Part shown: one piece after another, positions 8,339 to 31,967 of the stretch | Layout of the letters: each line of letters starts with the position of its first letter | How positions within the stretch are numbered: the first letter of the stretch is position 1 | Assembly: GCA_003694545.1 (NCBI GenBank) | Contig: RFKD01000051.1 | Location: 4,505 to 68,504 of the forward strand | Length of the DNA: 64,000 bases | Source of the DNA: Candidatus Parcubacteria bacterium | Lineage (GTDB): Bacteria; Patescibacteriota; Minisyncoccia; Phycocordibacterales; UBA12088 | Direction: 5' to 3' | Translations under genes and position numbers: made by a program | The notes under the pieces: model-generated | Seen by the model: only the letters and a program-made list of their open reading frames with translations | What the model was told of the DNA's origin: nothing | Database searches by the model: none

Positions 8339-8605
8339 TTATTTACGCAGACCCAGCTTCTTCACGATCGTGTTATAGCGTCGGGCGCTTTCTCGCTTGA
8401 GATACTGTAAGTGGCGCCTGCGATCGGCGACCAACCCCAACAGGCCGCGGCGCGAATGGATGTCGCGGGGGTGCTTTTTCAAATGTTGCGAAAGCTCATT
8501 GATGCGCTCCGTCAGGATGGCAATTTGCACCTCGGGAGACCCTGTGTCCTGCTCGTGCGTCTGCGTTTGCGCGATAAGTTTCGCCTTCTTTTGTTTCGTG
8601 ATCAT
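8339..8605 (-). CDS. rpsO: 30S ribosomal protein S15
   Basis: [70 protein letters not shown], full-length S15 similarity. Start at the MITKQ Met (rc 'cat' at 8603-8605). Confidence 0.92.
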
Positions 8606-8876
8606 ATGCAAAACAAGGTAGCACAAGACGAGCCTCCGCGCAAGATGCCCTTACCTCAGTTGGGCGGCTCTTTGGCGGTGGCAGGTTTTTCATTGGCGAG
8701 CGGTGAGGAGATTAATGAGGGGGTTGTTATGTTGTGCGACATTGCCTGTGCTATTCTTAATAAGTGGCGGGGGTTATGCGTAAAGTATCGGCGCCACGTT
8801 TTGAGACCTGTTACGGCTCACCTTGCGTTCCCATAGCATCCTACTACCTGTCTTTTTCATCACATGTTTCCTCAAT

Positions 8877-9826: not shown

Positions 9827-10600
9827 ATGCGCCTCGTCTCATGGAATGTTAACGGTTTGCGCGCGGTGGTGCGCAAGGGGGCGTGGCGGCCGTTTCTCCA
9901 GCGTTTTGCCGAGGCTGATGTAATCGGCCTTCAGGAAATAAAAGCCACCCCTGATCAGCTCCCTCCAGAGGCGCGCGCTCCAGAAGGGTGGCGCGCCTAC
10001 TTTCACCCCGCGAGCGTTAAAAAAGGCTACAGCGGTGTTGCGCTTTACACCCGGCGGGAGCCTGATGAAGTGCGCTATGAAATGGGATTTACCGACGAAG
10101 AAGGCAGAATTCTTGGAGCTCGCTTTGGCGATCGTTGGGTATTTTCCGTCTACTTTCCCAACGGAGGAGGCGCGCCCGAGCGCTTTACCTACAAACTTGA
10201 TTTTTACGCCCGCGTGCGTGACGAAGCGGCGCGTTTGACGCAAAGCGGATTTTCCGTTGTGTTGATGGGGGACTTTAATGTCGCGCACCAGCCGATCGAT
10301 TTAGCCCGCCCCAAGGAAAACGAAGGAATGATTGGCTTTCACCCCAAGGAGCGTGCGTGGTTCTCTTCCCTTCTTGCGGCGGGATTCGTCGACTCGTTTC
10401 GCCACTTGTCTCCCGCCCAAGAAGGCGCCTATTCTTGGTGGGATCTTATTACCCGCGCTCGCGAGCGCAATGTGGGCTGGCGCATTGACTACATTGTCGT
10501 GCCGCGGCAAGACGCAGCGGGCATACAGGAGGCCCAAGTGGTGCAGGATGTGCTCGGCTCGGACCACTGCCCGGTCGCACTTACGCTTGATGAGGTATAA
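9827..10600 (+). CDS. xth: exodeoxyribonuclease III (AP endonuclease, ExoIII/APE1 family)
   Basis: MRLVSWNVNGLRA..., DVIGLQEIK, FPNGGG, VLMGDFNVAH, WRIDYIVV, GSDHCPVALTL: all ExoIII family motifs. Confidence 0.92.
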   Translation: MRLVSWNVNGLRAVVRKGAWRPFLQRFAEADVIGLQEIKATPDQLPPEARAPEGWRAYFHPASVKKGYSGVALYTRREPDEVRYEMGFTDEEGRILGARFGDRWVFSVYFPNGGGAPERFTYKLDFYARVRDEAARLTQSGFSVVLMGDFNVAHQPIDLARPKENEGMIGFHPKERAWFSSLLAAGFVDSFRHLSPAQEGAYSWWDLITRARERNVGWRIDYIVVPRQDAAGIQEAQVVQDVLGSDHCPVALTLDEV

Positions 10601-11464: not shown

Positions 11465-12949
11465 CTACACCACGCCGTATTTTTTCAAAATCTCCTTTGT
11501 GGCGGCCTCTTCTGCCTCTTCTTTGGTTTTTTTGCCTTTTTCTCCAATCTGCCGCAGTTCTTCCTCTGGGAGAGCAAGGAGTTCTTGAGCTCGCGCGAGA
11601 AGGTACTCTCTGTTGTTTTTGGAAGGGTCTTCAAGTATCTCTTCGAGCAGAGCATGGAGCACCCAGCCAATCGCAGGCCCTGGTTTCACGTGAAAATGTT
11701 CCATAAGATTCGTCCCGTTGATAGCCAACATACTCACGGAAATCGGATCGCGCAGCGCCTGCTCCACCATTGCGGTGTATTTACGAAGCCGAAACGGCTG
11801 CTCTTTGGGTTTGCCGCTTCCAATGCGGTCGCACATACGCAGGTGGAGAAGATCCCAAATGTTTTCTTTTCCTACACGCTGGATGATGCGCCGAACGGCA
11901 GAGAGGGTAATTTTCTCGGGGTCAGCGAAAAACATATGCCAACGGACAAGCGCCACAACCTTATCCCGCAAGTCGTGGGGAAACTTTAGGCGGTCAAGCG
12001 CGCGTTTCGTGATCGCCGCCCCAACCACCTCATGGTTGTAGAATGTGTGGTCTCCCAAGGCCGGATCGTATGCTTTTGTGGCGGGTTTGCCGATGTCGTG
12101 GAGAAGGGCGGCAAGACGCACCGCAAGAGAAAAGTTTCGGTCGGCGGCATGCTGTACGGAGCGCACAAGATGCTCAAACACATCGTAAATATGGGAGCGG
12201 TTTTGCCCAACATCATAGGTTTCCTCAAGCTCGGGTAACACATAGCGCATAAGGCCGGTTTGGCGCAGCAACGCCATGCCAACTGCCGGGCTGGGGGAGG
12301 CAATAATGCGGATAAACTCATCACGAATTCGCTCGCGAGAAATGTGCTCAAGCAGGGGGGCGTTTTGCGCAATAGCAGTGAGCGTTTCCCCTTCAATGGC
12401 AAGGTTCAATTCAGCGGCAAGCCGAATGGCTCTCAACATCCTTAGTGCGTCTTCAGAAAACCGCTGATTTGGATCTCCTACCGCTCGGATAATTTCCCGG
12501 CGTAAGTCCTCCAATCCGCCAAAGGTATCTATTAAATTTTCACGTGAAATAGAGTACGCCATCGCGTTGATGGTGAAATCGCGCCGCGCGAGGTCTTCTT
12601 CAAGGGAATCCGTAAAAGACACCTCTAAAGGACGCCGAAAATCTGCGTAAGTCCCCTCTGTCCTATACGGCGTTACCTCCACCACTTCGGTGGCTGGGTT
12701 GCCGCTCTCTGTCACCACACCCACGGTTCCAAATTCGTTGTTGTAGTAGGTGTGAGGAAAAAGCCGCTGAATTTTTTCCGGCGTGGCGTTCGTGGTGATG
12801 TCCCAGTCTTTCGGCTCTTTCCCCAAGAGAAGATCCCGCACGCATCCCCCAACGAGGTAGGCTTCGTAACCAGCCTTTTCAAGAGCTTGGGCGACTTCTT
12901 TCACCTCTGGGGGTATGTTGGCAGGAGGAATGGTGGAGGCGGCACGCAT
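11465..12949 (-). CDS. cca: CCA tRNA nucleotidyltransferase / poly(A) polymerase family protein with HD domain
   Basis: GGCVRDLLLGKEPKDWDITTNATPEKI (Pol-beta-like NTase head), RDFTINAMAY, and an HD domain (LLHDIGKPAT). Confidence 0.88.
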   Translation of the reverse strand: MRAASTIPPANIPPEVKEVAQALEKAGYEAYLVGGCVRDLLLGKEPKDWDITTNATPEKIQRLFPHTYYNNEFGTVGVVTESGNPATEVVEVTPYRTEGTYADFRRPLEVSFTDSLEEDLARRDFTINAMAYSISRENLIDTFGGLEDLRREIIRAVGDPNQRFSEDALRMLRAIRLAAELNLAIEGETLTAIAQNAPLLEHISRERIRDEFIRIIASPSPAVGMALLRQTGLMRYVLPELEETYDVGQNRSHIYDVFEHLVRSVQHAADRNFSLAVRLAALLHDIGKPATKAYDPALGDHTFYNHEVVGAAITKRALDRLKFPHDLRDKVVALVRWHMFFADPEKITLSAVRRIIQRVGKENIWDLLHLRMCDRIGSGKPKEQPFRLRKYTAMVEQALRDPISVSMLAINGTNLMEHFHVKPGPAIGWVLHALLEEILEDPSKNNREYLLARAQELLALPEEELRQIGEKGKKTKEEAEEAATKEILKKYGVV

Positions 12950-14671: not shown

Positions 14672-15871
14672 ATGTTTCGCGACCTTCTTCACCTTTTCCA
14701 AAAAGGGTGGGGGCGCTTACAAGAGCGTGTGGGTCGCTTTGCGGCGCGATGGCGGCGTGTTGGTGCGAGAAGGCGGCGATGGATCTGGTGGGGAACCGGA
14801 GTCCTTCTTTGCTTTTTGGCGTCGCCGTTGGTGAGCTTTTTTGTTGTGTGGGGCATTTGTCGACAGGAGGAAGTCCCCCCGATTGTTGCTCAAACGGACG
14901 CGAGTGGGGAATTTGCGCGCCGGGTTGCCCCCCGGCCGCTCCGGCCAGAGGCGGCAACCCTGCTTACCTTTCCCGAATGGTATATCGTGTATAACGCTCG
15001 TGAATACGCGGAATTTCTCGAGAACAATCCCCCGTCACGCTTCCCGTACGCTCGGGCAATAGGGGCGTATTGGCAATCCGTGTGCCGCACCACGGCGGCG
15101 ACACGCGAGACCTACCCCCTTTCCCAGCTTCGTGACGGATTGATCACGCTTCATGTGATAGGGCCAAGTTTCACGCTCGAAACTATCCTGAGTGGCGCGT
15201 ATGAAACGACGCTGGGGCGACTGGTTTTTTGGTTAGGAGGAAGTTATACCGAAGAAGATCAGATAGCGGGAGAGGTCGCGCGCGAGTACGCGGTCTTTTT
15301 GGAGTATACGCCATGGTACGAGTTTCCTTACATGCAGGCGCTTGCCCGCCTCTGGACGGAGGCATCGTGGTGGGGGCCCCATGTGGCACGGAAATGGGAG
15401 CGGAAGATCGCGTTATCACTTGGATACGGAGCGAAAGCGTTGTATGCTGGGGTTATGCGCTGGGTAACGCGAACAACCTATGGCGTGCAGGACCCCACAA
15501 CCTATGCGGTTATTGCGGCTCCAGAGCCGCCTTCAATCCCTCCTGAAGTTGAGGTGGTTGCCCGGAGCGATGACTATGTAGTGCTCCGGCTGCCGCGCTA
15601 TGCTGCCCTTGTTCCCGCCGTGGTGGCGTTGGCGCAGGAAGGGGCCACATTCCTTTCTCTTGAGGGCAATAACTCCATTGCGGCCTCGTTTCTCGTGCCA
15701 AAAGGGGAAGCGATTCCTCCCGCGTGGGGGCAGGAAGTGGTGCGACTTGCGGTTTTGTCACGCCCGGGGGTAGAGCGGGTGCTGGTTGTGTTGCCGGTGC
15801 GACGTTTGGCAGAGGTGTTGCGCGCGGCGCAGCACAGCCCCATGCAACTGGATCATGTGTATGACTACTAG
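14672..15871 (+). CDS. hypothetical membrane-anchored protein
   Basis: N-terminal Arg-rich segment followed by a TM helix (WWGTGVLLCFLASPLVSFFVVWGI), then a roughly 330-aa soluble domain. It is translationally coupled to neighbours at both ends. Confidence 0.5.
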   Translation: MFRDLLHLFQKGWGRLQERVGRFAARWRRVGARRRRWIWWGTGVLLCFLASPLVSFFVVWGICRQEEVPPIVAQTDASGEFARRVAPRPLRPEAATLLTFPEWYIVYNAREYAEFLENNPPSRFPYARAIGAYWQSVCRTTAATRETYPLSQLRDGLITLHVIGPSFTLETILSGAYETTLGRLVFWLGGSYTEEDQIAGEVAREYAVFLEYTPWYEFPYMQALARLWTEASWWGPHVARKWERKIALSLGYGAKALYAGVMRWVTRTTYGVQDPTTYAVIAAPEPPSIPPEVEVVARSDDYVVLRLPRYAALVPAVVALAQEGATFLSLEGNNSIAASFLVPKGEAIPPAWGQEVVRLAVLSRPGVERVLVVLPVRRLAEVLRAAQHSPMQLDHVYDY

Positions 15872-22289: not shown

Positions 22290-22363
22290 CGGGGTGTGGT
22301 GTAATGGTAGCACGCATGCTTTGGGTGCATGTAGTCCGAGTTCGAGTCTCGGCACCCCGACCA
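22290..22363 (+). tRNA. tRNA-Pro (anticodon TGG), CCA encoded
   Basis: CGGGGTG TG GTGT AATGGTA GCAC G CATGC TTTGGGT GCATG TAGT CCGAG TTCGAGT CTCGG CACCCCG A CCA. The AT-rich island begins immediately downstream. Confidence 0.9.
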
Positions 22364-22485: not shown

Positions 22486-22782
22486 TCAGTTTTCTATCCA
22501 GCAGGCGGCGGTTCGTTCCAATTTTCCCGCAACAGATTTTATTTCATCAAAAGCGTCTGACGAAGCCAGTTCTTCAGCGTGATGAGCGGATAAAATCCAC
22601 TCTTTCAATGGTTCAATCCAATTGTTTCCCTTTCGCCCAAAATCAGCCTTTCTTTTGTTAAGGTCTGTTTTTGTTTTAATGAGCTCGTCTTTTTTGGCAA
22701 GATACGTTTCTTTTTCAATACTGCCGTCCAAAAAGGCGTTGACCAATCTATTCAACTTTTGCTGGGTTTCCTCTTGTCCCAA
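22486..22782 (-). pseudogene. 5'-truncated remnant of a large serine recombinase (C-terminal coiled-coil segment only)
   Basis: NRLVNAFLDGSIEKETYLAKKDELIKTKTDLNKRK resembles the C-terminal coiled-coil of large serine recombinases (..AYLDGxIsKEEYlxKKxELexexxeL..). There is no catalytic N-domain. It lies 120 nt from the tRNA-Pro 3' end. Confidence 0.4.
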
Positions 22783-22822: not shown

Positions 22823-22851
22823 TTGACTAAAGCAAAAATAATTCATATACT
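22823..22851 (+). promoter_or_regulatory. sigma70-like promoter for the XRE gene and the downstream defence operon (TTGACT-17 nt-TATACT)
   Basis: -35 TTGACT at 22823-22828, a 17-nt spacer, and -10 TATACT at 22846-22851, about 55 nt upstream of the XRE start. The region is AT-rich, so a chance match is possible. Confidence 0.35.
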
Positions 22852-22907
22852 ACCAATATAAGCAAGAACTTGAGTATACATAACTATATTAATAAAGTTT
22901 TATAATT

Positions 22908-23117
22908 ATGCCAAAGAGTAAAGCAACTATCGGCGAGAATATACGGAAGTACCGCCTGCAAAAAAATATGTCGCAAGACCGCCTGTCTAAATTGGCGGAT
23001 GTCGCTTTTCATACCATCGTCAAGATAGAATCCGGCGAGACGCCAAATCCTACAATAGAAACGGTCAGGAAAATCGCCGCCGCGCTTGGCGTGAGTATTG
23101 ATGATTTAATGAAGTAA
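22908..23117 (+). CDS. XRE-family helix-turn-helix transcriptional regulator (Cro/C1-type)
   Basis: IGENIRKYRLQKNMSQDRLSKLADVAFHTIVKIESGETPNPTIETVRKIAAALGVSIDDL, a canonical HTH_XRE. Its stop is 2 nt before the start of the next gene. Confidence 0.85.
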   Translation: MPKSKATIGENIRKYRLQKNMSQDRLSKLADVAFHTIVKIESGETPNPTIETVRKIAAALGVSIDDLMK

Positions 23118-23119
23118 CT

Positions 23120-26100
23120 ATGACGAACCATTCCGATCTCACATTTATCACAAACGAAGAAGGACAGAATCTCCTCGAGCGTTTCAGGGTGTTGATAAAA
23201 GACACCGAGTTCTTTGATGTCCTTGTAGGCTATTTCTATACCAGCGGCTTTTATACCCTATATAAATCATTGGAGAAAACTAAAAAAATCAGGATTCTTA
23301 TCGGCATCAGCACCAACCGGCAGACACTTGATCTGATAGAAAAGGCAGAGCAACAGGAGCTTACATTCTCCCATGCGGAGACGAAGGAACACTTTTCCAA
23401 TCTGCTTGCTGGAGAAATGGAGAGCGCGGAGGACAGCAGAAAAGTAGAAGAAGGGGTTACAAAGTTTATGGAGTGGTTGCAAAACGGAAAACTCGAAATC
23501 AGGGCGTATCCGACAGAAAATATCCACGCCAAGCTTTACATTATGACTTTTGTAGAGAGCGACAGAGACGTCGGGAGGGTCATCACAGGTTCAAGCAATT
23601 TTACCTACTCAGGCTTAGTGGAAAATCTTGAGTTCAATGTGGAGTTGAAAAACCGCGCTGATTATGAATTCGCCAAAGAAAGATTTGAGGAGCTTTGGAA
23701 AGAAGCTGTTGACGTCAGCGAAAAATACATTCAGACGATTCAGGAAAAAACCTGGCTCAACCCGAATGTAACCCCCTATGAGCTATACCTAAAATTTCTG
23801 TACGAATATTTTAAAGACGAGTTAAGCCAAACCGATGAAATGTTTTGTCGCTACTTACCCCACGACTTCAGGAAACTTGAATATCAGGAGCAAGCGGTTT
23901 TAAACGCCAAAAAAATCCTCGAGGAATACGGTGGTGTATTCATTTCGGATGTTGTGGGTTTGGGAAAGACTTACATTTCAGCCATGATCGCCGGTCAGCT
24001 TGACGGCAGAACGCTGGTCATCGCTCCGCCGGTTTTGCTTGACAAAACAAATCCCGGCTCATGGCCAAATGTGTTTTCCGATTTTCGGATTTCGGCGGAC
24101 TTTGAGTCCATTGGAAAATTAGACGATATCCTGCGCAGAGGAACAGAAAAATACAAGAACATTATTATAGATGAAGCCCATCGATTCCGCACGGAAACCA
24201 ACATCACCTACGAAAAATTAGCCGAAATCTGTCGAGGCAAGCGAGTGATTCTGGTCACAGCCACGCCGTACAACAATTCCCCAAAAGACATCTTAAGCCA
24301 GATAAAGCTGTTCCAAAAAGCAAGGAGAAGCACGATTCCCAATCTGCCTGATTTGGAAGGCTTCTTTGGAGGATTGGAGAGGAAGCTTAAAAAGCTCGAC
24401 AGGCAAAAAGATTACTCCGAATACATCAGAGTAGTTAAAGAGAATGCCAAAGAAATCCGCGAGAAGGTGCTCAAGTATTTGATGGTGCGTCGCACCAGAA
24501 CTGAAATCTTAAAATACTTTCCCGATGATTTGGCTAAGCAAAATCTCAAGTTTCCGGATGTCGATGATCCAATGCCGCTTTTTTACCAGCTTAATGAAGA
24601 AGAAGACAAAATATTCAACACAACCATAGAGATGATTACCAAAAAATTTACTTACGCTCGTTACACGCCACTTTTGCCAAAATACTATAAAGGTTCAATT
24701 GACCTTTTTGAGGAACAATCCCAGAAGAACATGGGTAAGTTCATGAAGATTCTTTTGGTGAAACGGCTTGAGAGCAGCTTCTTTGCTTTCAAGCAATCAA
24801 TTGGCCGCTTTATCTCCTCTTATGAGATGTTTATCAAAGAGTTCAAAAAGGGACATGTTTATATCAGTAAAAAATACGCGAACAAGATTTTTGAATATCT
24901 GGAAAATGATGATGACGAAGCCATCCAAAAGCTGATCGATGGGGGTAAAGCCGAAAGATACGACAGCGAGGATTTTACCGAAGACTTTATCAAAGATCTG
25001 GAAAGCGATCTCACTATATTGACCACTATCTTATCTCTCTGGCAAAACATTAAACGAGATCCCAAACTACTCACGTTCCTTGATGAACTTTCAAAAAATA
25101 AAATACTCCAAAATAAGCTCATCGTTTTTACCGAATCAAGAGAAACCGCCGAATATCTGGCAAGAAATATCAATAATAAATTTGGAGACATCACGCTTTG
25201 TTTTACTGGCAGATCAGAAGAAGCCACCCGCGATAAAGTGATCGATAATTTTGATGCAAAAGTGCGCCATCCCAAAGACGATTATCGCATTCTGGTTTCG
25301 ACCGAGGTCTTGTCAGAGGGCGTCAACCTGCATCGCTCCAATGTGGTCGTAAATTATGACATACCCTGGAATCCAACCCGCATGATGCAAAGGGTCGGAC
25401 GCATCAACAGGATCGATACGACGTTCGACAAAATCTATACTTTTAATTTTTTCCCAACCAAACAATCGAACGACCAGATCAAACTCAAAGAAGCGGCAGA
25501 GGCTAAAATCAATGCTTTTCTTACATTGCTAGGCGGCGATGCGGCGTTGTTAACTGAAGGCGAACCGGTTGACTCACATGAGCTTTTCAATCGGTTAATC
25601 TCCAAAAAGACCCTGATTGGCGAAGACGAAACCGAAGAAAGCGAGCTTAAGTATTTGCAAGTGATTAAAAATATTCGGGACAAAAACCCTGACCTATTTG
25701 AAAAAATCAAGCGTTTGCCCAAGAAAGTCCGGACAGCAAAAAAGGATGTTGGACATCGAGATTCACTGGTAACTTATTTCAGGCGTGGCAAGCTACAGAA
25801 ATTTTTTATAGCTGATCAAAGCTCGGTTGCCAGGGAACTTGATTTTATAAGTGCTGCACGTATACTCGCAAGTGCCAGTGATGATAAAAAACAAAAACTG
25901 CCGGAAAAGTTTTTTGACCTTCTGGATAAAAATAAAGAGGCTTTTCTTCGTGCCACTACCGAAGAGATGGTTGAACCCGTAAAAAAACGTGGTCATGACA
26001 GCGCCGCACAATTGCTCAAAATTCTCAAAGCTACAGTGGGGAACACACAACCGTTCACGGACGAGCAGGAGCAGTATATTAAACAGGTCATCGTCCAGTT

Positions 26101-26308
26101 GGAGGAAGGCGGTTTACCTAGGCAAACAGTCAAAGAAACCCTCAAGGCGCTGAATGAACTCAAGCAGGATTTAATTAACCCGTTTAAAGTGCTGGCTACA
26201 CTGCAAAGCCACATCCCCGAGCAATTTTTACGACAGCACTATGCAGAGCAGAATCCGCGTTCAGTCGGGAAAAGGGAAGTGATTCTATCAATGTATTTAA
26301 CAGGATAA
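23120..26308 (+). CDS. PLD-family (HKD) nuclease domain fused to an SNF2-family helicase (putative restriction / DNA-translocase subunit)
   Basis: N-terminal PLD-like region (KKIRILIGIST...NIHAKLYIMTF...VITGSSNFTYSGL: HxK...GSxN). SNF2 motifs I GLGKTYIS, II IIIDEAHRFR, III VILVTATPYNN, and helicase-C motifs LVSTEVLSEGVNL and NPTRMMQRVGRINR. Confidence 0.85.
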   Translation: MTNHSDLTFITNEEGQNLLERFRVLIKDTEFFDVLVGYFYTSGFYTLYKSLEKTKKIRILIGISTNRQTLDLIEKAEQQELTFSHAETKEHFSNLLAGEMESAEDSRKVEEGVTKFMEWLQNGKLEIRAYPTENIHAKLYIMTFVESDRDVGRVITGSSNFTYSGLVENLEFNVELKNRADYEFAKERFEELWKEAVDVSEKYIQTIQEKTWLNPNVTPYELYLKFLYEYFKDELSQTDEMFCRYLPHDFRKLEYQEQAVLNAKKILEEYGGVFISDVVGLGKTYISAMIAGQLDGRTLVIAPPVLLDKTNPGSWPNVFSDFRISADFESIGKLDDILRRGTEKYKNIIIDEAHRFRTETNITYEKLAEICRGKRVILVTATPYNNSPKDILSQIKLFQKARRSTIPNLPDLEGFFGGLERKLKKLDRQKDYSEYIRVVKENAKEIREKVLKYLMVRRTRTEILKYFPDDLAKQNLKFPDVDDPMPLFYQLNEEEDKIFNTTIEMITKKFTYARYTPLLPKYYKGSIDLFEEQSQKNMGKFMKILLVKRLESSFFAFKQSIGRFISSYEMFIKEFKKGHVYISKKYANKIFEYLENDDDEAIQKLIDGGKAERYDSEDFTEDFIKDLESDLTILTTILSLWQNIKRDPKLLTFLDELSKNKILQNKLIVFTESRETAEYLARNINNKFGDITLCFTGRSEEATRDKVIDNFDAKVRHPKDDYRILVSTEVLSEGVNLHRSNVVVNYDIPWNPTRMMQRVGRINRIDTTFDKIYTFNFFPTKQSNDQIKLKEAAEAKINAFLTLLGGDAALLTEGEPVDSHELFNRLISKKTLIGEDETEESELKYLQVIKNIRDKNPDLFEKIKRLPKKVRTAKKDVGHRDSLVTYFRRGKLQKFFIADQSSVARELDFISAARILASASDDKKQKLPEKFFDLLDKNKEAFLRATTEEMVEPVKKRGHDSAAQLLKILKATVGNTQPFTDEQEQYIKQVIVQLEEGGLPRQTVKETLKALNELKQDLINPFKVLATLQSHIPEQFLRQHYAEQNPRSVGKREVILSMYLTG

Positions 26309-26312
26309 TAAT

Positions 26313-29147
26313 ATGGACAGACAACAAGCTCAAAAGCTGATTAAAGAAACTTTTGAAAATCCTTTTGATAAAGGCAAATTTGCCCGTTTTATAAAAAATC
26401 TCCTTAACCGAGTTGAAGACGCCCCTTTCACGTACCAAGGCAATTATATCCCCGAAGCTTACCAACCTTACATCTCATCGTTGGAGCGTCTTTACAAATA
26501 TTCAGGCGGAGAACATAAGATTGACATACTTGTCGTTCAACTGAAAAAACAAACTTCGCTGGAACGCGCCCGTACCATGCAGCGCAATTTCATTGCCCGG
26601 TACTTAAACGGCAGCCGTGGCGGTGAAATGAAAGATGCCGCGCTGGTTGCCTTTGTTTCTCCTGGTGAAGTGGACTGGCGTTTTTCGCTGATTACAATGG
26701 ACTACCGTTTTGAAGAAACAAAAGACGGAAAAGTAAAAGTCAAAGAAGAATTTACTCCGGCAAGGCGCTGGTCGTTTCTGGTAGGAAGCAACGAAGCCAG
26801 CCACACCGCCCAGAGCCGACTGGTGAACATTCTCGTCGATGATGAGCACCATCCCACACTCCAGCAACTGGAAGAAGCCTTCAACATTGAAACTGTTACC
26901 AAAGAGTTCTTCATCAAATACCGCGAGATGTTTATCCGTACGAAGGAAGAACTGGATACAGTGGTGGCACGAGACGCCAAAATCAAAGCCGATTTTGATG
27001 CCAAAGGTATTGACACGGTCAACTTTGCCAAAAAGCTGCTCGGCCAAATCGTCTTTCTTTATTTTCTGCAAAAGAAAGGCTGGTTTGGCGTCAAGCGGGA
27101 CGCCAAATGGGGTACGGGCTCCAAACATTTTTTACGAGAACTTTTCGAAGGCAAATATGGCAGCTATAACAATTTTTTCAACGATATTCTTGAACCTCTC
27201 TTTTATGAAGCGTTGCGCATCGACCGCAGTCATGACGACCATTATTACAGCCGGTTCAATTGTAAGATTCCGTTTCTGAACGGAGGGCTGTTTGATCCTA
27301 TCGGCAATTACGACTGGGTACACACGGACATCAACATACCGAACGAGCTTTTTTCCAACACAGTAAAAACCAAAGAAGGCGATATTGGTAACGGTATTTT
27401 AGATATCTTTGACCGCTACAACTTTACGGTCAAGGAAGATGAGCCTTTGGAAAAAGAGGTCGCCATCGATCCGGAGCTTTTGGGTAAAACGTATGAAAAA
27501 TTCAACGCTATCCGTCCGGATAATTTTGAAGAATACAAGGCGGCTTTAAAGAGCGGGCAAAAGGGTGCTGAAAACAAGTTCAACAAGACATTTGGTGTTT
27601 ACTACACCCCGCGGGAAATCGTGCATTACATGTGCAAGCAGAGCCTGATTAATTATCTTTTCACTAAGGCGGAAGAAGAGGGGATTTCTAACGATATTAA
27701 AAAGCAAGACATCGAAGACCTGATCGAAATCGGCGAGATGATTACCGAACACGAGGCAACCGCTCTTAACAAAGAGGATAAAATTAGAAACGGCATCCAG
27801 AAATCCACGAAATACGAGAGGCTTTCATCCGACAGTATACGAAAAAATGCCAAAATCATAGATAACTGGCTGGCTGACATTACCGTGTGCGATCCGGCAG
27901 TGGGTTCCGGCGCCTTCCCGGTGGGCATGATGCATGAAATTGTCAAGGCTCGTAATCTCCTTTCCACATTTATTCAAGACCCTAACCGCACCATTTATAC
28001 CTTCAAACGCGAATGCATCGAAAAATCCCTCTATGGCGTGGACATCGACCCCGGCGCGGTGGAGATTGCCAAACTGCGGCTCTGGCTGTCGCTGGTGGTG
28101 GATGAGGATGATATCCGCCAGATCAAGCCTCTGCCGAATTTGGATTATAAAATTGTGTGCGGAAATTCGCTGCTGGGTGTGGAGAAGAATTTGTTTAATA
28201 ACCAACTGTTTGCCGAACTGGAACGACTGAAGCCGCTTTACTTTCATGAAACCAATCCCACAAAAAAGCAGGAATACAAAAAGGAGATTGATGACTTGAT
28301 TAGCCAAATTACCAACGGACATACGGAATTTGATTTTGAGGTCTATTTTTCCGAGGTGTTTCATAAGAAGGGCGGGTTTGATGTGGTGATTGGAAATCCG
28401 CCGTACATCCAACTTCAAAAAGCGATTGATGATAAGCAAAAATACGCTGATCTCTATAAAAATGCATGCTACGAGACTTTTGATAGGTGCGGAGATATTT
28501 ACTGCCTCTTTTATGAAAAAGGCATACACATTCTCCGACCCAATGGCGTTTTGTGTTTTATCACCAGCAATAAATGGATGCGGGCAGGCTACGGCAAATC
28601 TCTCCGAAGATTTTTCCTCAAGCATAATCCCAGACTTTTGATTGATTTAGGTCCCGGCGTTTTTGAAAGCGCGACCGTGGATACCAATATTCTCATAATG
28701 CAAAAATCCGAGGAAAAACCCGCCCCGGTGTGTCTCGATGCTGTTACCTTAACTGAAGAGGCAAAAGAATCGGACATTGCTTTGTATATTAAGAAGAACA
28801 GAAAACGCTTGACGGCTCTGAGCGAGAATGCTTGGTTTATTGGCAGCGCTGCTGAACAGCAACTCAAAGAAAAAATCGAACGCATAGGTAAACCACTGAA
28901 AGATTGGGATGTGAATATTTATTATGGTATTAAAACCGGCCTAAACGAAGCCTTTATCATCACTACTGAAAAGCGTAATGAAATACTAGCAAACTGCAAA
29001 GATGAAGAAGAAAGAAAACGCACCGAAGCCATCATCAAACCTATTTTACGAGGCAGAGATATCAAGCGATATTATCAAGCGATATTATTACGAATGGGCA
29101 GGGTTTTGGGTGATAGTAATTCCAGCAGGCTGGACAAATGTAAATAA
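26313..29147 (+). CDS. gamma-class N6-adenine DNA methyltransferase (Eco57I/PglX/type IIG-like), interrupted near its C-terminus by a frameshift
   Basis: FGVYYTPREIVHYMCKQSL (motif X), CDPAVGSGAFPVG (motif I), VIGNPPYIQLQ (motif IV NPPY), and a long N-terminal domain typical of PglX/type IIG enzymes. The reading frame ends KPILRGRDIKRYYQAILLRMG... just after the ILRGRDIKRY TaqI_C hallmark. Confidence 0.85.
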   Translation: MDRQQAQKLIKETFENPFDKGKFARFIKNLLNRVEDAPFTYQGNYIPEAYQPYISSLERLYKYSGGEHKIDILVVQLKKQTSLERARTMQRNFIARYLNGSRGGEMKDAALVAFVSPGEVDWRFSLITMDYRFEETKDGKVKVKEEFTPARRWSFLVGSNEASHTAQSRLVNILVDDEHHPTLQQLEEAFNIETVTKEFFIKYREMFIRTKEELDTVVARDAKIKADFDAKGIDTVNFAKKLLGQIVFLYFLQKKGWFGVKRDAKWGTGSKHFLRELFEGKYGSYNNFFNDILEPLFYEALRIDRSHDDHYYSRFNCKIPFLNGGLFDPIGNYDWVHTDINIPNELFSNTVKTKEGDIGNGILDIFDRYNFTVKEDEPLEKEVAIDPELLGKTYEKFNAIRPDNFEEYKAALKSGQKGAENKFNKTFGVYYTPREIVHYMCKQSLINYLFTKAEEEGISNDIKKQDIEDLIEIGEMITEHEATALNKEDKIRNGIQKSTKYERLSSDSIRKNAKIIDNWLADITVCDPAVGSGAFPVGMMHEIVKARNLLSTFIQDPNRTIYTFKRECIEKSLYGVDIDPGAVEIAKLRLWLSLVVDEDDIRQIKPLPNLDYKIVCGNSLLGVEKNLFNNQLFAELERLKPLYFHETNPTKKQEYKKEIDDLISQITNGHTEFDFEVYFSEVFHKKGGFDVVIGNPPYIQLQKAIDDKQKYADLYKNACYETFDRCGDIYCLFYEKGIHILRPNGVLCFITSNKWMRAGYGKSLRRFFLKHNPRLLIDLGPGVFESATVDTNILIMQKSEEKPAPVCLDAVTLTEEAKESDIALYIKKNRKRLTALSENAWFIGSAAEQQLKEKIERIGKPLKDWDVNIYYGIKTGLNEAFIITTEKRNEILANCKDEEERKRTEAIIKPILRGRDIKRYYQAILLRMGRVLGDSNSSRLDKCK

Positions 29148-29718
29148 AGGTGAAGTCACCGCAGAAAAATTTATAAACATGAAGTTTCCTGCATTAATGC
29201 AGTATTTGAAAATATATGAAGAAAAAGCCAGAAAACGCGATGATCAAGGTGATTATTGGTGGGAATTACGCCATTGTGCCTACTACCCCGAATTTGAGAA
29301 AGAGAAGGTGGTGTGGAGTGATATTGCCTCAGAACCAACTGTTACCGTTTTACCTAAGGGATTATATTTCAATAATACCGTTTACATGGTTTCTTCAAGA
29401 ACCCCACGCTATTTTGCCGGTATTTTAAATTCTCGCGTGATAAAATGGTATTTCTCTAAAATAGCAACGGATCTAGGAGAAAAAGGTCGGCGCTTTTTTA
29501 AAATCTTTGTTGAGGTTATGCCTTTGATACCCATCACCCCTGCCAACCAGCCCATTGTTCAGCAAATAGAGGCATTGGTAGATAAAATCCTTGCAGAAAA
29601 GAAACAAAACCCGCAAGCAGACACCAAAGAATACGAACACCAGATTGACCAGCTCGTCTATAAACTCTACGATCTGACACCGGAGGAAATTAAGATTGTG
29701 GAAAATTCACGATCGTGA
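29002..29718 (+). CDS. C-terminal TaqI_C-like target-recognition segment of the methyltransferase, in the +1 frame (continuation after the 13-bp duplication)
   Basis: The +1 frame gives DIIKRYYYEWAGFWVIVIPAGWTNV...WWELRHCAYYPEF...YFAGILNSRVIKWYF, which matches the TaqI_C / type IIG specificity-domain pattern (WxELR..YY, LNS.v..wy). Confidence 0.7.
   Translation: MKKKENAPKPSSNLFYEAEISSDIIKRYYYEWAGFWVIVIPAGWTNVNKGEVTAEKFINMKFPALMQYLKIYEEKARKRDDQGDYWWELRHCAYYPEFEKEKVVWSDIASEPTVTVLPKGLYFNNTVYMVSSRTPRYFAGILNSRVIKWYFSKIATDLGEKGRRFFKIFVEVMPLIPITPANQPIVQQIEALVDKILAEKKQNPQADTKEYEHQIDQLVYKLYDLTPEEIKIVENSRS
29064..29089 (+). repeat. perfect 13-bp tandem duplication (caagcgatattat x2) causing a +1 frameshift inside the methyltransferase
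   Basis: Read directly from the sequence: 29064-29076 equals 29077-29089. Removing one copy restores ...ILRGRDIKRYYYEWAGFWVIVIPAGW..., the expected TaqI_C continuation. Confidence 0.9.
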
Positions 29719-31967
29719 ATATGATCACTCGCGTAATAAAAATTAAAAACTGTGCGTCATTTGTTGATTTTGTACCGGGTGCCGACCTGCCGGCATTTAG
29801 GAAATACAACTTAATTTACGGATGGAATGGATCGGGTAAAACCAATTTTTCACGAGTATTACGTTCTTTTGAATTACGGGAAAATTATTATGCTGACTTG
29901 AATAATCCAACAGAATTTGAATTTCAACTTGATAATGGTACAGCAATAAGTCAACAAGATTTAACGGTTTTCCCAAATATTCGAGTGTTTAACAAGGATT
30001 TTATCAATGAGAGCGTTTTTTGTACCGGCGGACCAAAGCCGATTTTCTTTCTGAGTAAAGAAAGTAAGGAAGACCAAGAAAAAATCATGCAACTAGGGAA
30101 TCAATTACGGAAATTGAGAGAAGATTTAGATTTTAAAAGAGCACTCCTTGATAAAGCTAAAATAAGAAAAGAAAAAATGCTTTCTGATAAAGCGCGTGAT
30201 ATTAAAACCGCTCTCACAACATCTCGTAGTGATAAGTACAGAAATTATGAACGGCCAAATCTAGAAAAAGCAATTCAGGACAACGTGAATGAACTTAAAA
30301 GCAATGTCGATAAATATAAATTGGCAGGGGATAGAGTTGCCATTCTCCAAAAGACAATACAACAAACGACTAAGCCAAAAGTTGAATCTTTGGCATTCCC
30401 AGATTTTGATATTTCTGAAACTGTAAGTGAGGTAAAAAAAGTTTTACAGACTACTGTTACTTCTCATATTATTGAGAGTCTTAAATTGGATGAGATGCTG
30501 AATAAGTGGGTAGAGCATGGGCTTTCTATTCACAAGGAAAGAGGGCTGAAAAATTGCGCTTTTTGTAATCAAGTAATCCCGCATCATAGATTTTCGGAAC
30601 TAGAACAACACTTTAACGATGATTACCAAAGGCTTATTGAGGAGCTGAGTAGCTTAAAGCAAACACTTGAAGGTAAAAAAATTTCAATTTCTTTTCCAGA
30701 CGCTTCAAGTTTTTATGACGATTTAATAGAAGAGTATTTAAACGCCAAAAAAGAAGCTGAAGAAATAGTTAAGAAATTTAATCAAAACATAGATTCTCTT
30801 ATTTCTGCTCTTGTGCAGAAGGAGCAAAGGCCATTTTCAAAAGTAGATTTAGAAGAATGGAAACAAGTTGAAATAAGGCCATTTGAAAATATAAACATTA
30901 TTATTTCAAAGCATAACGAAAGGTCAGACAATTTTGATAAACAAATAGATGAAAGTAAACACATTTTAGAGATGCACTATATTGCAGATTTTATCCATTC
31001 TTATTTTGAACAGATGGATGAAATAGAAAAACTAGAGAAAGAAGTTTCGGAATTAGAGAATGAAATAAAAACTAACGAGACGAAAGAAAACGAGTTAAAA
31101 AACTCACTCATAAGTCATCGCATTCCCGCTAATCGGATTAACGAAGACTTGAAGCATTTTTTGGGACGTGATGATATTCGCCTAGTTGCTACCGATAAGG
31201 AGGAAGGTTATCAGATTTTCCGTAACGGAACGCTTGCAAAAGATTTAAGCGAGGCCGAAAAAACTGCATTGGCGCTCGTATATTTTCTGACAAAAATACA
31301 CGAGAAAGGGTTTGACTTGAAAAATGGTGTGATTGTTATGGATGATCCGGTTTCAAGCTTTGATTCTAATTCAATTTTTCAAGCATTTGGGTTTATCAAA
31401 GAGTCAATCAAAGAGGCAAAACAGATTTTTATTTTGACACATCACTTTGACTTTTTTAGACAAGTGAAAAATTGGTTTTCGTATTACAAGGAAGATGAAC
31501 GAGAATTCTTTATGATGGTATGCGGCAAAGAAGATTCAGTGAGAAAGTCCCGAATTGCAACAATCGACAAATTACTGATTGGCTATGAATCCGAATACCA
31601 CTTTTTGTTTAGCATTTTGTACAGATTTGCGAAAAATAATGAAGTACAATTGGAAAACGCATATCCAATTCCAAATATTGCGCGTAAATTTCTTGAGAGT
31701 TTTTTGGCTTTCAGAGTACCTGTTTTAGCAAACGGACGACAAAAAGAGCCGAACTTGTACCATAGATTGGAAAAAATTGATTTTGATAAAAAAAAGAAGG
31801 AACGTATTCTCCGGTTTATTGAAACTCACTCCCATCCGCGATACGAGTCTGGAGTACAAGATTTTGACATGACTATTTTGGGAGAGACGAAAGAAATCGT
31901 GAATGATTTACTTGCTTTAGTAGAGCACGAAGACAAAAAACACTTTGAATTTTTAGTGAAAAGTTAG
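29715..31967 (+). CDS. RloC/PrrC-like AAA_13 family ATPase (restriction-linked anticodon-nuclease-type protein) with coiled-coil CxxC zinc-hook
   Basis: Walker A NLIYGWNGSGKTNFSRVL at the N-terminus. A roughly 400-aa K/E-rich coiled-coil contains NCAFCNQVIPHH (CxxC). ABC-signature-like LSEAEKTALALVYFL, Walker B/D-loop VIVMDDPVSSFDSNS, H-loop IFILTHHFDF, and a C-terminal R/E/H-rich segment (KKERILRFIETHSHPRYE). GTG at 29715 overlaps the upstream stop (GTGA); an alternative ATG is at 29721. Confidence 0.75.
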   Translation: MNMITRVIKIKNCASFVDFVPGADLPAFRKYNLIYGWNGSGKTNFSRVLRSFELRENYYADLNNPTEFEFQLDNGTAISQQDLTVFPNIRVFNKDFINESVFCTGGPKPIFFLSKESKEDQEKIMQLGNQLRKLREDLDFKRALLDKAKIRKEKMLSDKARDIKTALTTSRSDKYRNYERPNLEKAIQDNVNELKSNVDKYKLAGDRVAILQKTIQQTTKPKVESLAFPDFDISETVSEVKKVLQTTVTSHIIESLKLDEMLNKWVEHGLSIHKERGLKNCAFCNQVIPHHRFSELEQHFNDDYQRLIEELSSLKQTLEGKKISISFPDASSFYDDLIEEYLNAKKEAEEIVKKFNQNIDSLISALVQKEQRPFSKVDLEEWKQVEIRPFENINIIISKHNERSDNFDKQIDESKHILEMHYIADFIHSYFEQMDEIEKLEKEVSELENEIKTNETKENELKNSLISHRIPANRINEDLKHFLGRDDIRLVATDKEEGYQIFRNGTLAKDLSEAEKTALALVYFLTKIHEKGFDLKNGVIVMDDPVSSFDSNSIFQAFGFIKESIKEAKQIFILTHHFDFFRQVKNWFSYYKEDEREFFMMVCGKEDSVRKSRIATIDKLLIGYESEYHFLFSILYRFAKNNEVQLENAYPIPNIARKFLESFLAFRVPVLANGRQKEPNLYHRLEKIDFDKKKKERILRFIETHSHPRYESGVQDFDMTILGETKEIVNDLLALVEHEDKKHFEFLVKS

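Follow-up and report, generated by a model that had tools for sequence, protein, structure and literature searches.

Among described defence systems, MANTIS (Gao_RL, BREX-related type 2, MtsA–D) is in its parts the closest to the locus reported here. Restriction by MANTIS needs a dimeric effector that joins a phospholipase D (PLD) nuclease to a superfamily 2 (SF2) motor, together with its ATPase, and inverted pairs of sites are preferred (Shaw et al.). The effector, MtsD, was shown structurally to form a dimer with one composite PLD site, and cleavage by MtsD has not yet been reconstituted. In the related Hma system (BREX-related type 1), a DUF499-type ATPase is central according to a survey of BREX-related systems, and the Hma paper describes an HmaA–HmaB–HmaC trio. 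We analysed a 64,000-nucleotide stretch of contig RFKD01000051.1 (GenBank assembly GCA_003694545.1, positions 4,505 to 68,504 of the forward strand), labelled as Candidatus Parcubacteria bacterium; this whole stretch is called the window below, and positions refer to it. The window holds two adjacent genes, one for a PLD nuclease fused to an SNF2-type motor (PLD-SNF2) and one for an N6-adenine methyltransferase, which recur together in hundreds of genomes. We judge, with moderate confidence, that the pair is a two-subunit ATP-dependent restriction–modification (R-M) system, Type III/ISP-like and MANTIS-like, in which the methyltransferase would set the specificity and a dimerising PLD-SNF2 would cut.

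The first gene of the pair (23120..26308, + strand) encodes a protein of 1062 amino acids (aa), assigned by Pfam matches and motifs to an HKD(PLD)–SNF2 architecture, and is the candidate Res-like subunit. Its PLD domain lies at approximately aa 31–193 (nt 23210-23698; Pfam PLDc_2 and RE_NgoFVII, the latter at 24.9–29.7 bits) and its SF2/SNF2 ATPase at approximately aa 254–765 (nt 23879-25414; Pfam ResIII, SNF2-rel_dom and Helicase_C), with a long helical insert between the two RecA lobes; the C-terminal 260 aa are conserved and match no known domain. The PLD catalytic core that had been predicted is intact, with one HKD motif per chain (H136-x-K138 followed by GSSN157-160) that is invariant in 31 orthologues, as are the motor motifs Walker A (GLGKT280-284), DEAH351-354 and motif VI (QRVGRINR757-764). 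This combination of an N-terminal single HKD motif with an SNF2-like SF2 ATPase on one chain defines the first member of the two-gene family. Since each chain contributes one HKD motif, two PLD-SNF2 chains must pair to make one nuclease site. Such pairing of two chains for one HKD site is established for Nuc, BfiI and SauUSI. The top profile matches of the protein were the PADLOC 'HKD+Snf2' model C3a139 (165 bits), DrmD and BrxH, and the PADLOC HmaA profile matched the helicase C lobe only. Against NCBIfam it scored 132 for DrmD (cut-off 610), 138 for the PLD anti-phage family NF042964 (which we take to represent MtsD; cut-off 1100) and still lower for ZorD and DpdE. A search of PDB sequences returned generic helicase matches only. 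The AlphaFold2 (AF2) model of PLD-SNF2 was poor (mean predicted local distance difference test, pLDDT, 54), and Foldseek retrieved SNF2 remodellers, other SF2 motors and SauUSI with it; matches of this kind, for PLD-SNF2 and for the methyltransferase model alike, back the fold class only.

The methyltransferase gene begins 4 nt downstream and would encode the Mod-like subunit, its reading frame being interrupted. A 5' part of 944 codons (26313..29147, +; Pfam Eco57I 148 bits, N6_Mtase and MmeI_Mtase) terminates at a frameshift-made premature stop at 29147, and a 3' open reading frame (ORF) with a TaqI_C-type target recognition domain (TRD; 29002..29718, +; Pfam TaqI_C 47 bits) is genuine coding sequence from about 29086. 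The frameshift comes from a 13-bp tandem duplication, TATCAAGCGATAT twice (29060..29085, +), located within GRDIKRY, a conserved motif of TaqI_C; it was read in the sequence and found by TRF at 100% match, with a span of 2.2 copies (29060-29088). When one 13-bp copy was deleted, the result was, as the initial annotation had anticipated at about 1130 aa, an uninterrupted ORF of 1130 aa that reads through GRDIKRY; intact orthologues measure 1131–1132 aa. The repaired protein consists of a family-specific N-domain (aa 1–190), a helical region (aa 191–510), an N6-adenine methyltransferase core and the C-terminal TRD. Alignment of 32 orthologues placed motif I (DPAVGSGAF, 527-535) before motif IV (NPPY, 695-698), which with the C-terminal TRD is the gamma arrangement. 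Its AF2 model was of moderate quality (pLDDT 67) and retrieved CamA, PglX/BrxX, DrdV and M.TaqI in Foldseek.

One alternative is a Type IIG enzyme in which the methyltransferase chain is complete in itself and carries a nuclease at its N-terminus, PLD-SNF2 being an accessory or enhancer. The 5' fragment matches the PADLOC profile REase_MTase_IIG PDLC03596, a REBASE-derived 'Type IIG' profile, at 1311 bits, the 3' fragment covers profile positions 925–1146, and jointly the two cover it end to end. The DrdV/PglX-like fold points the same way, DrdV being a Type IIL enzyme with an N-terminal nuclease, as does the naming of such genes as Type II/IIG by Milman 2023 and Johnston 2017, and residues 1–190 form a confidently folded domain with an alpha/beta core in the AF2 model. 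However, unlike the Type IIG/IIL enzymes with which it shares these traits (Cj0031, MmeI, DrdV; Pin17FIII), the protein shows no recognisable nuclease motif anywhere in its chain, and a dedicated nuclease–motor gene always stands next to it. We found no nuclease domain in aa 1–510, where Pfam gave no meaningful domain at E<=10, and a profile of the N-domain had no match among PDB sequences at the same threshold. In an alignment that included relatives at 45–50% identity the N-domain showed no conserved PD-(D/E)xK triad. In the wider family neither of its candidate acidic residues, E58 and D71, is conserved, and therefore no PD-(D/E)xK nuclease is seen in the methyltransferase chain as judged from its sequence. 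The invariant residues of the N-domain are R87, R91, W122-R123, S125, R152, S154, V157-G158, E161 and H164-T165. In a search of 1.8 billion cluster representatives the N-domain occurred in 843 clusters at 50% identity, and among the 150 clusters listed it stands at the N-terminus of proteins of about 1000–1300 aa, the shorter ones looking like fragments. Further, cloned Pin17FIII was reported to methylate and cleavage was not reported, and the gene is strictly paired with, and co-diverges with, a complete nuclease–motor protein. Given this evidence we regard the self-contained Type IIG enzyme as unlikely.

We favour the pair itself as the functional unit; its recurrence in hundreds of genomes is far beyond chance. 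A search with PLD-SNF2 gave at least 8000 candidates at E <= 1e-10. The family occurs in many bacterial phyla, among them oral and gut Bacteroidota of humans, anammox bacteria and candidate phyla, and on archaeal plasmids. A genome scan with one genome per species revealed 354 loci encoding a PLD-SNF2 relative, and neighbourhoods were taken from the best 80 of the 354, at 69–87% identity, from Spirochaetota, Bacteroidota, Nitrospirota, Planctomycetota (anammox), Desulfobacterota, Chloroflexota, Omnitrophota, Patescibacteria and other phyla. In 74 of these 80 loci a co-oriented methyltransferase homologue is encoded downstream. For most of the other six, too short a stretch follows PLD-SNF2 to decide, and L020, which has room for the gene, shows just a TRD-like match. 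A methyltransferase of about 1100–1200 aa with the family N-domain, directly downstream on the same strand, is thus the second member of the family, and the window has it in frameshifted form. The gap between the two genes is 8–15 nt in 40 loci, and no third conserved neighbour was found among the 80. The nearest intact orthologues (84–85% identity) are two genes alone, encoding 1062 aa and 1131–1132 aa, with neither of the two further operon genes of the window described below. Consistently, a reverse search of IMG/VR viral contigs with methyltransferase aa 1–450 found PLD-SNF2 directly upstream in 12 of 13 contigs with upstream sequence, which holds down to 45% identity. Across 70 loci the distance matrix of one protein correlates with that of the other (r=0.86, Mantel p ~0.001). 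Plasmid-borne relatives at 30–37% identity in Prevotella, Parabacteroides and Thermus are also paired with homologous methyltransferases, of about 1110–1130 aa, or 744 aa with a different gene order in Thermus; the Prevotella nigrescens locus is homologous to the window pair at 29.5% for PLD-SNF2 and at 33% from residue 47 on for the methyltransferase. The co-occurrence of PLD-SNF2 with an Eco57I/TaqI_C gene in other genomes, the absence of which would have counted against the initial annotation by its own terms, is strongly borne out by the forward and reverse counts and by the correlation.

In 30 loci (within L002–L078) genes are inserted between the two members: AlbA_2(/Schlafen)/HATPase_c_4 in about 17, Bro-N in 6, ORF6N in 3, and AbiEii or PIN pairs. 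Genes of these types are typical passengers of Type I R-M operons. The PLD-SNF2/methyltransferase junction is a hotspot for gene insertion. On a Parabacteroides distasonis plasmid (L099, NZ_OY725763.1, 13660-16814) a TIR-domain protein and a large AAA-domain protein are encoded downstream of a distant pair, which suggests that other effector genes are attached to such pairs in gut Bacteroidota.

The linkage also bears on the possibility that PLD-SNF2 is an independent, modification-dependent Type IV enzyme that lies beside the methyltransferase with no functional tie to it. CglI/NgoAVII and SauUSI likewise combine an NgoFVII-type HKD nuclease with an ATP-dependent SF2 motor, a dimer making one active site. 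CglI differs in its separate R and H subunits, B3-like DNA-binding domain and C5 methyltransferase, whereas SauUSI, a single-chain Type IV enzyme targeting modified DNA, has the PLD plus SF2 layout and is among the fold matches. That the nuclease gene stays intact next to a disrupted methyltransferase would also fit such an enzyme. However, an independent SauUSI-like enzyme is hard to reconcile with near-obligate adjacency, 8–15-nt spacing and co-divergence with the methyltransferase, and strict linkage to one N6-methyladenine (m6A) methyltransferase family would bring a Type IV enzyme no gain. In addition, no modified-base reader domain is recognisable in PLD-SNF2 in Pfam. An independent Type IV enzyme is, in our estimate, very unlikely.

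Compared with classical R-M enzymes, the pair shares the Mod/Res two-gene logic of Type III systems (EcoP15I Mod + Res) and a ResIII Pfam match, and by this analogy asymmetric sites, hemimethylation and two-site cleavage would be expected. However, the Type III Res nuclease is a C-terminal PD-(D/E)xK domain and the Type III Mod a beta-class enzyme whose TRD is internal. The window pair instead combines an N-terminal PLD domain and an SNF2-like motor with a gamma-class methyltransferase that has a 500-aa N-terminal extension and a C-terminal TaqI_C TRD, and it was not placed in Type III. Type ISP enzymes (LlaGI/LlaBIII) share the four activities of nuclease, translocase, gamma-type N6-adenine methyltransferase and TRD, in equal order, and a related helical-plus-methyltransferase layout, yet in them a single polypeptide holds an Mrr-family nuclease and a motor of Type I kind; in the window a stop codon and 4 nt part the two ORFs, the nuclease is PLD instead of Mrr and the motor SNF2-like, so that Type ISP does not apply either. 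The idea of a split Type ISP enzyme, with which the locus had first been explained, is supported as a functional analogy, and so is the likeness to Type III.

The likeness to MANTIS lies in N6-adenine methyltransferase specificity, an N-terminal HKD/PLD-SF2 effector that dimerises into one PLD site, and a small repressor gene that is sometimes present. MANTIS differs in that it needs the DUF499 AAA+ loader MtsA and the small co-activator MtsB (DUF3780 or DUF3870; the two source papers disagree), which are absent here and at related loci, whereas the methyltransferase here has its own N-terminal domain. When ORFs of at least 350 aa across the window and the genes of the low-GC island described below were scanned, no DUF499, DUF1998 or PglZ was found. 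MANTIS/Gao_RL and Hma were rejected because the DUF499 AAA+ protein (MtsA/HmaC) and a small MtsB-type protein are absent from the window. DISARM class 1 (DrmD + DrmMI + DrmABC) also brings together an SNF2-like helicase, an N6-adenine methyltransferase and a PLD nuclease, but DrmA and DrmB (DUF1998) are absent from the same scanned ORFs and island, and PLD is fused to SNF2 instead of forming a separate DrmC. DISARM was therefore rejected, and the DISARM-like character once suggested does not amount to membership, the DrmD score being 132 against a cut-off of 610. BREX was rejected as well, with partial PglX-profile matches only (78–79 bits) and no PglZ or BrxC in the window.

A related reading takes the locus as a fragment of DISARM class 1, BREX or BREX-related Hma/MANTIS whose other genes lie elsewhere. 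Partial profile matches to DrmD, DrmMI, PglX, BrxH and the MtsD-like 'phospholipD_antiphage', together with the name 'BREX-1 PglX' that NCBI gives to some orthologues, would agree with a fragment. Nevertheless, the scores stay far under the curated cut-offs (for NF042964, 138 against 1100), the window is without DrmA, DrmB, PglZ, BrxC, DUF499 and DUF3780, a third gene is conserved in none of the 80 loci, and the family has a full-length profile of its own. We give the fragment of a larger system very little credence.

Next, the methyltransferase sequences were compared within the family. The median identity between the repaired window protein and 42 intact orthologues is 70% for the N-domain, 69% for the helical region, 60% for the methyltransferase core and 32% for the TRD, a gradient that would be the pattern expected of a swappable specificity domain. 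A JGI metagenome contig and a Logan assembly match the window without a difference, and NCBI BPJK01000002.1 is 99.7% identical to it. The duplication is missing from the NCBI contig, where loss of 1 bp at window position 29378 frameshifts the TRD in another way. This contig also carries 11 substitutions within 63 bp (28871-28933), possibly the trace of recombination in the specificity region, and just two further differing sites in the remaining 9 kb. Both haplotypes therefore have a TRD broken by different lesions and an intact PLD-SNF2 gene; each lesion may rest on one read set, and the two assemblies with the 13-bp duplication may share reads. We considered whether the duplication is a phase-variation switch and rejected this, as there is no simple-sequence tract and the twin contig has a different lesion. 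Among 50 related loci with enough sequence, the methyltransferase is intact in 43 and broken or shortened in 7, and in all 7 PLD-SNF2 is uninterrupted. The persistence of intact PLD-SNF2 beside broken methyltransferases suggests, at the level of sequence, that the nuclease is harmless without a working methyltransferase or TRD, as would be expected if targeting depends on the methyltransferase, which it does in Types I, III, ISP and in MANTIS. With the TRD frameshifted, site recognition should be lost, and the window copy is probably a non-functional, decaying, horizontally acquired one; the activity first ascribed to it had been overstated, since the methyltransferase is disrupted in this genome.

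Based on Type III, Type ISP, SauUSI and MANTIS as analogues, a mechanism can be proposed for the intact pair. The methyltransferase of about 1130 aa would act as the Mod/specificity subunit, its variable TaqI_C-type TRD reading a short, probably asymmetric motif, and the gamma-class domain would methylate one adenine of that motif, marking self, with hemimethylated sites predicted by analogy. At unmethylated sites the methyltransferase would recruit or license PLD-SNF2, possibly through its family-specific N-domain; that the two proteins interact physically is what we infer from genomics. PLD-SNF2 would then move along double-stranded DNA by its ATP-driven SNF2-type motor, and two chains, from converging complexes or a pre-formed dimer, would build the single HKD site and cut. 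Because two chains are needed per nuclease site, cutting would be expected when complexes meet, and the presumed outcome would be defence. In the window copy the TRD break has probably abolished both modification and targeted restriction, which would explain the tolerance of the intact nuclease gene.

Several points weigh against this two-subunit reading. No restriction assay of any family member was found in the literature searched, and the window copy is disrupted, so that its genome says nothing on activity. The model of PLD-SNF2 is of low confidence (pLDDT 54), and the link between the two proteins comes from genomics. The MANTIS methyltransferase needs an AAA+ loader for DNA, and by analogy a two-gene system may need a further factor. 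The methyltransferase N-domain, in which E161 and H164 are invariant, could be a nuclease of unrecognised fold. Finally, the broken methyltransferases in metagenome-assembled genomes may partly be assembly errors. A stronger form of the two-subunit reading is that the pair is a self-sufficient, uncharacterised class of ATP-dependent R-M, a loader-independent minimal counterpart of MANTIS, Hma and DISARM class 1, in which the N-domain would take the place of the AAA+ loader and link the recognition of sites to a dimerising PLD-SNF2 translocase; in some lineages, this one among them, the RloC-type gene that follows the pair in the window would be a translationally coupled, PrrC-style guard. We put this forward as a tentative proposal with a real chance of being correct, though one we would not yet bet on.

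Specificity may also be switched in this family. One related locus (L089) has inverted repeats of 291 nt at 98% identity (8447-8737 / 9967-10257) that link the methyltransferase gene to a partial copy lying inverted further downstream, and the P. nigrescens locus (L102) has 47-nt inverted repeats (12283-12329 / 14974-15020) across the GNPPY motif. Such inverted TRD copies in relatives imply, on the sequence pattern, inversion-driven specificity switching. No inverted TRD cassettes were found in the window. Milman et al. 2023 listed Cj0031-like Type II R-M genes beside a phospholipase D plus SNF helicase gene as targets of programmed inversion, with which the inverted cassettes of the relatives agree. 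TRD inversion is what an epigenetic regulator (phasevarion) would show, Cj0031-type genes phase-vary and change gene expression, and SNF2 proteins remodel protein–DNA complexes; hence a non-defensive role of the pair, as such a regulator or as a DNA-repair/remodelling module, has to be weighed. However, the catalytic HKD nuclease is conserved and the TRD hypervariable, the pair is patchy across phyla at 70–87% identity, which implies horizontal transfer, its context here is an island, and Abi- and toxin-type genes are inserted in the operon. Taken together, these observations make a non-defensive role very improbable, and we retain the R-M interpretation.

In the window the pair is part of a tightly packed operon-like array of four co-oriented genes on the + strand, in the order XRE, PLD-SNF2, methyltransferase and AAA_13. 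The gap is 2 nt between XRE and PLD-SNF2, and the TRD ORF overlaps the AAA_13 gene by 4 nt. The initial annotation had described this array, and its ORFs and domain calls were confirmed (Pfam HTH_3, PLDc_2, SNF2, Helicase_C, Eco57I, TaqI_C and AAA_13 all matched), the XRE gene at 22908-23117 lying just outside the start of the interval it had covered.

The last gene of the array (29715..31967, +, GTG start) encodes a 750-aa RloC-type ABC/Rad50-like ATPase (Pfam AAA_13, 479 bits over the full length; PADLOC PDC-S06, 710 bits), which had no match among PDB sequences. RloC has been defined by ABC motifs split by a coiled coil with a CxxC zinc hook and by a C-terminal Arg-x3-Glu-x36-52-His motif, often with Ser before His (Davidov and Kaufmann 2008, PMC2610378). 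The window protein has every sequence feature of this definition, with Walker A (GWNGSGKT) at 36, CxxC (CAFC) at 281 within a long helical insert, the ABC signature (LSEAE) at 511, Walker B (VIVMDDP) at 539 and the anticodon-nuclease motif R657-x3-E661-x45-S706-H707, so the earlier assignment to RloC stands. An RloC gene follows the pair in just 3 of the 80 related loci (L027, L037 and, as a fragment, L039). On this sequence evidence RloC is an optional accessory of the abortive-infection type, predicted to be a suicide tRNase. In the divergent L037 (57–73% identical) the gene again overlaps the end of the methyltransferase by 4 nt, and therefore a PrrC-like functional link of RloC to the pair is possible in some lineages. 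RloC may respond to the restriction complex, like PrrC with EcoprrI, or to breaks in DNA. The protein resembles known RloC/PrrC in its full set of defining features and in its linkage to a restriction locus, as for PrrC and a minority of RloC genes; the restriction loci linked to them so far are of Type I/III. The PLD-SNF2/methyltransferase pair next to it here thus adds another kind of restriction partner to those of anticodon nucleases.

At the other end, the XRE-family helix–turn–helix (HTH) gene (22908..23117, +) encodes a controller (C-protein)-like protein of 69 aa (Pfam HTH_3, 57 bits; PADLOC Control_protein, 39.5 bits). Upstream lies the best sigma-70-like promoter of the island, TTGACT-17-TATACT (22823..22851, +), with 10/12 matches in a consensus scan and identified by consensus match only, and a palindrome search found an AT-rich palindrome (22877-22904) between this promoter-like site and the XRE start. 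R-M controller proteins are small HTH proteins, co-transcribed ahead of the restriction gene, that bind palindromic C-boxes in their own promoter. A putative controller role of XRE behind a shared operon promoter is plausible from this arrangement. No XRE homologue was found upstream of the 80 related loci by blastp and phmmer against upstream ORFs; unrelated HTH genes occur upstream in the distant Prevotella and Parabacteroides relatives. Judged by this distribution, XRE is a lineage-specific accessory outside the conserved core. Small upstream ORFs at other loci look like noise, except that a ribbon–helix–helix (RHH; Arc/CopG-type)-like peptide is encoded directly upstream of PLD-SNF2 in two Omnitrophota loci (L013, 9813-9998; L029, 1253-1435). 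These RHH-like peptides recall the optional MtsR repressor of MANTIS.

The array could still be read as one obligatory four-gene system, or as an Hma-like helicase–methylase–ATPase trio with AAA_13 as the ATPase. The tight packing, the methyltransferase/RloC overlap here and in L037, the single good promoter upstream of XRE and a gene order that mirrors Hma all fit such a reading, but RloC is present in 3 of 80 loci and XRE upstream of none, the nearest intact orthologues have neither, RloC has a distinctly lower GC content and holds complete effector motifs of its own, and the ATPases of Hma and MANTIS are DUF499 AAA+ and not ABC/Rad50-like proteins. The obligatory four-gene system is thus quite unlikely, and the four-gene module of the initial annotation reduces to a two-gene core, PLD-SNF2 plus methyltransferase, with two add-ons.

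The array is carried on a low-GC island of about 9.6 kb (from about 22364 to about 32000) that adjoins tRNA-Pro, as delimited by ORF listing and composition. GC falls from 0.55–0.65 to about 0.40 past 22400, and the island, at 29–50% against about 56% in the flanks, is compositionally foreign. It begins directly 3' of tRNA-Pro(TGG) (22290..22363, +; ARAGORN), which is probably its integration site; no att-like direct repeats were found flanking it. Between tRNA-Pro and XRE, a 98-aa ORF inside the island (22486..22782, - strand; LNRLVNAFLDGSIEKETYLAKKDEL...), which two public annotations also call as a gene, has a sequence similar to the coiled C-terminal region of large serine recombinases. 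It has no Pfam match and as its sole match a weak one to phrog_95 'integrase' (E=0.007), and may, tentatively, be the C-terminal relic of a serine-recombinase-type integrase of the element. The RloC gene has a GC content of 29–39% against 37–50% in the PLD-SNF2 and methyltransferase genes, which indicates that RloC was acquired separately and that the island is a mosaic of at least two acquisitions. The remainder of the window encodes housekeeping functions (PNPase, CCA-adding enzyme, RNase Y, NusA, trigger factor, peptidases, CorA and a MocR-type regulator), and the island is therefore an isolated insertion outside any larger defence island. A DNA search against the E. coli genome gave no match. 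With about 56% GC, a type II secretion pseudopilin-like gene and many metabolic and peptidase genes, the window is unusual for Candidatus Parcubacteria, a label that may be mistaken.

The pair has been seen before in passing, in a Conserved Domain Database (CDD) model and in two papers (Milman 2023, Johnston 2017), and is widespread. The CDD model PLDc_N_Snf2_like exists, the family is otherwise unnamed, and in the literature searched we found no name, census or functional test of the pair. With these precedents, the 'Type IIG' profile and the dissection of the related MANTIS, the novelty first claimed for the locus was overstated. Johnston et al. 2017 described Pin17FIII of Prevotella intermedia, a protein of 1117 aa whose gene follows one for an SNF2/RAD54 helicase and precedes an inverted partial gene; cloned alone in E. 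coli, it yielded m6A at GGYGAB. A member of the wider family thus probably methylates an asymmetric motif alone; Pin17FIII is tied to the family by the similar organisation of the locus in the sister species P. nigrescens, not by its own sequence. Multi-part methylation-based defences (BREX-related systems, DISARM, MANTIS) are hard to dissect, and the pair offers the same effector logic in two proteins. If autonomous, it would be a tractable model of a methyltransferase licensing a PLD-motor nuclease. Many 'Type IIG' database entries would then be half of a two-subunit enzyme, and methylome-to-gene assignments and predictions of transformation barriers would be affected.

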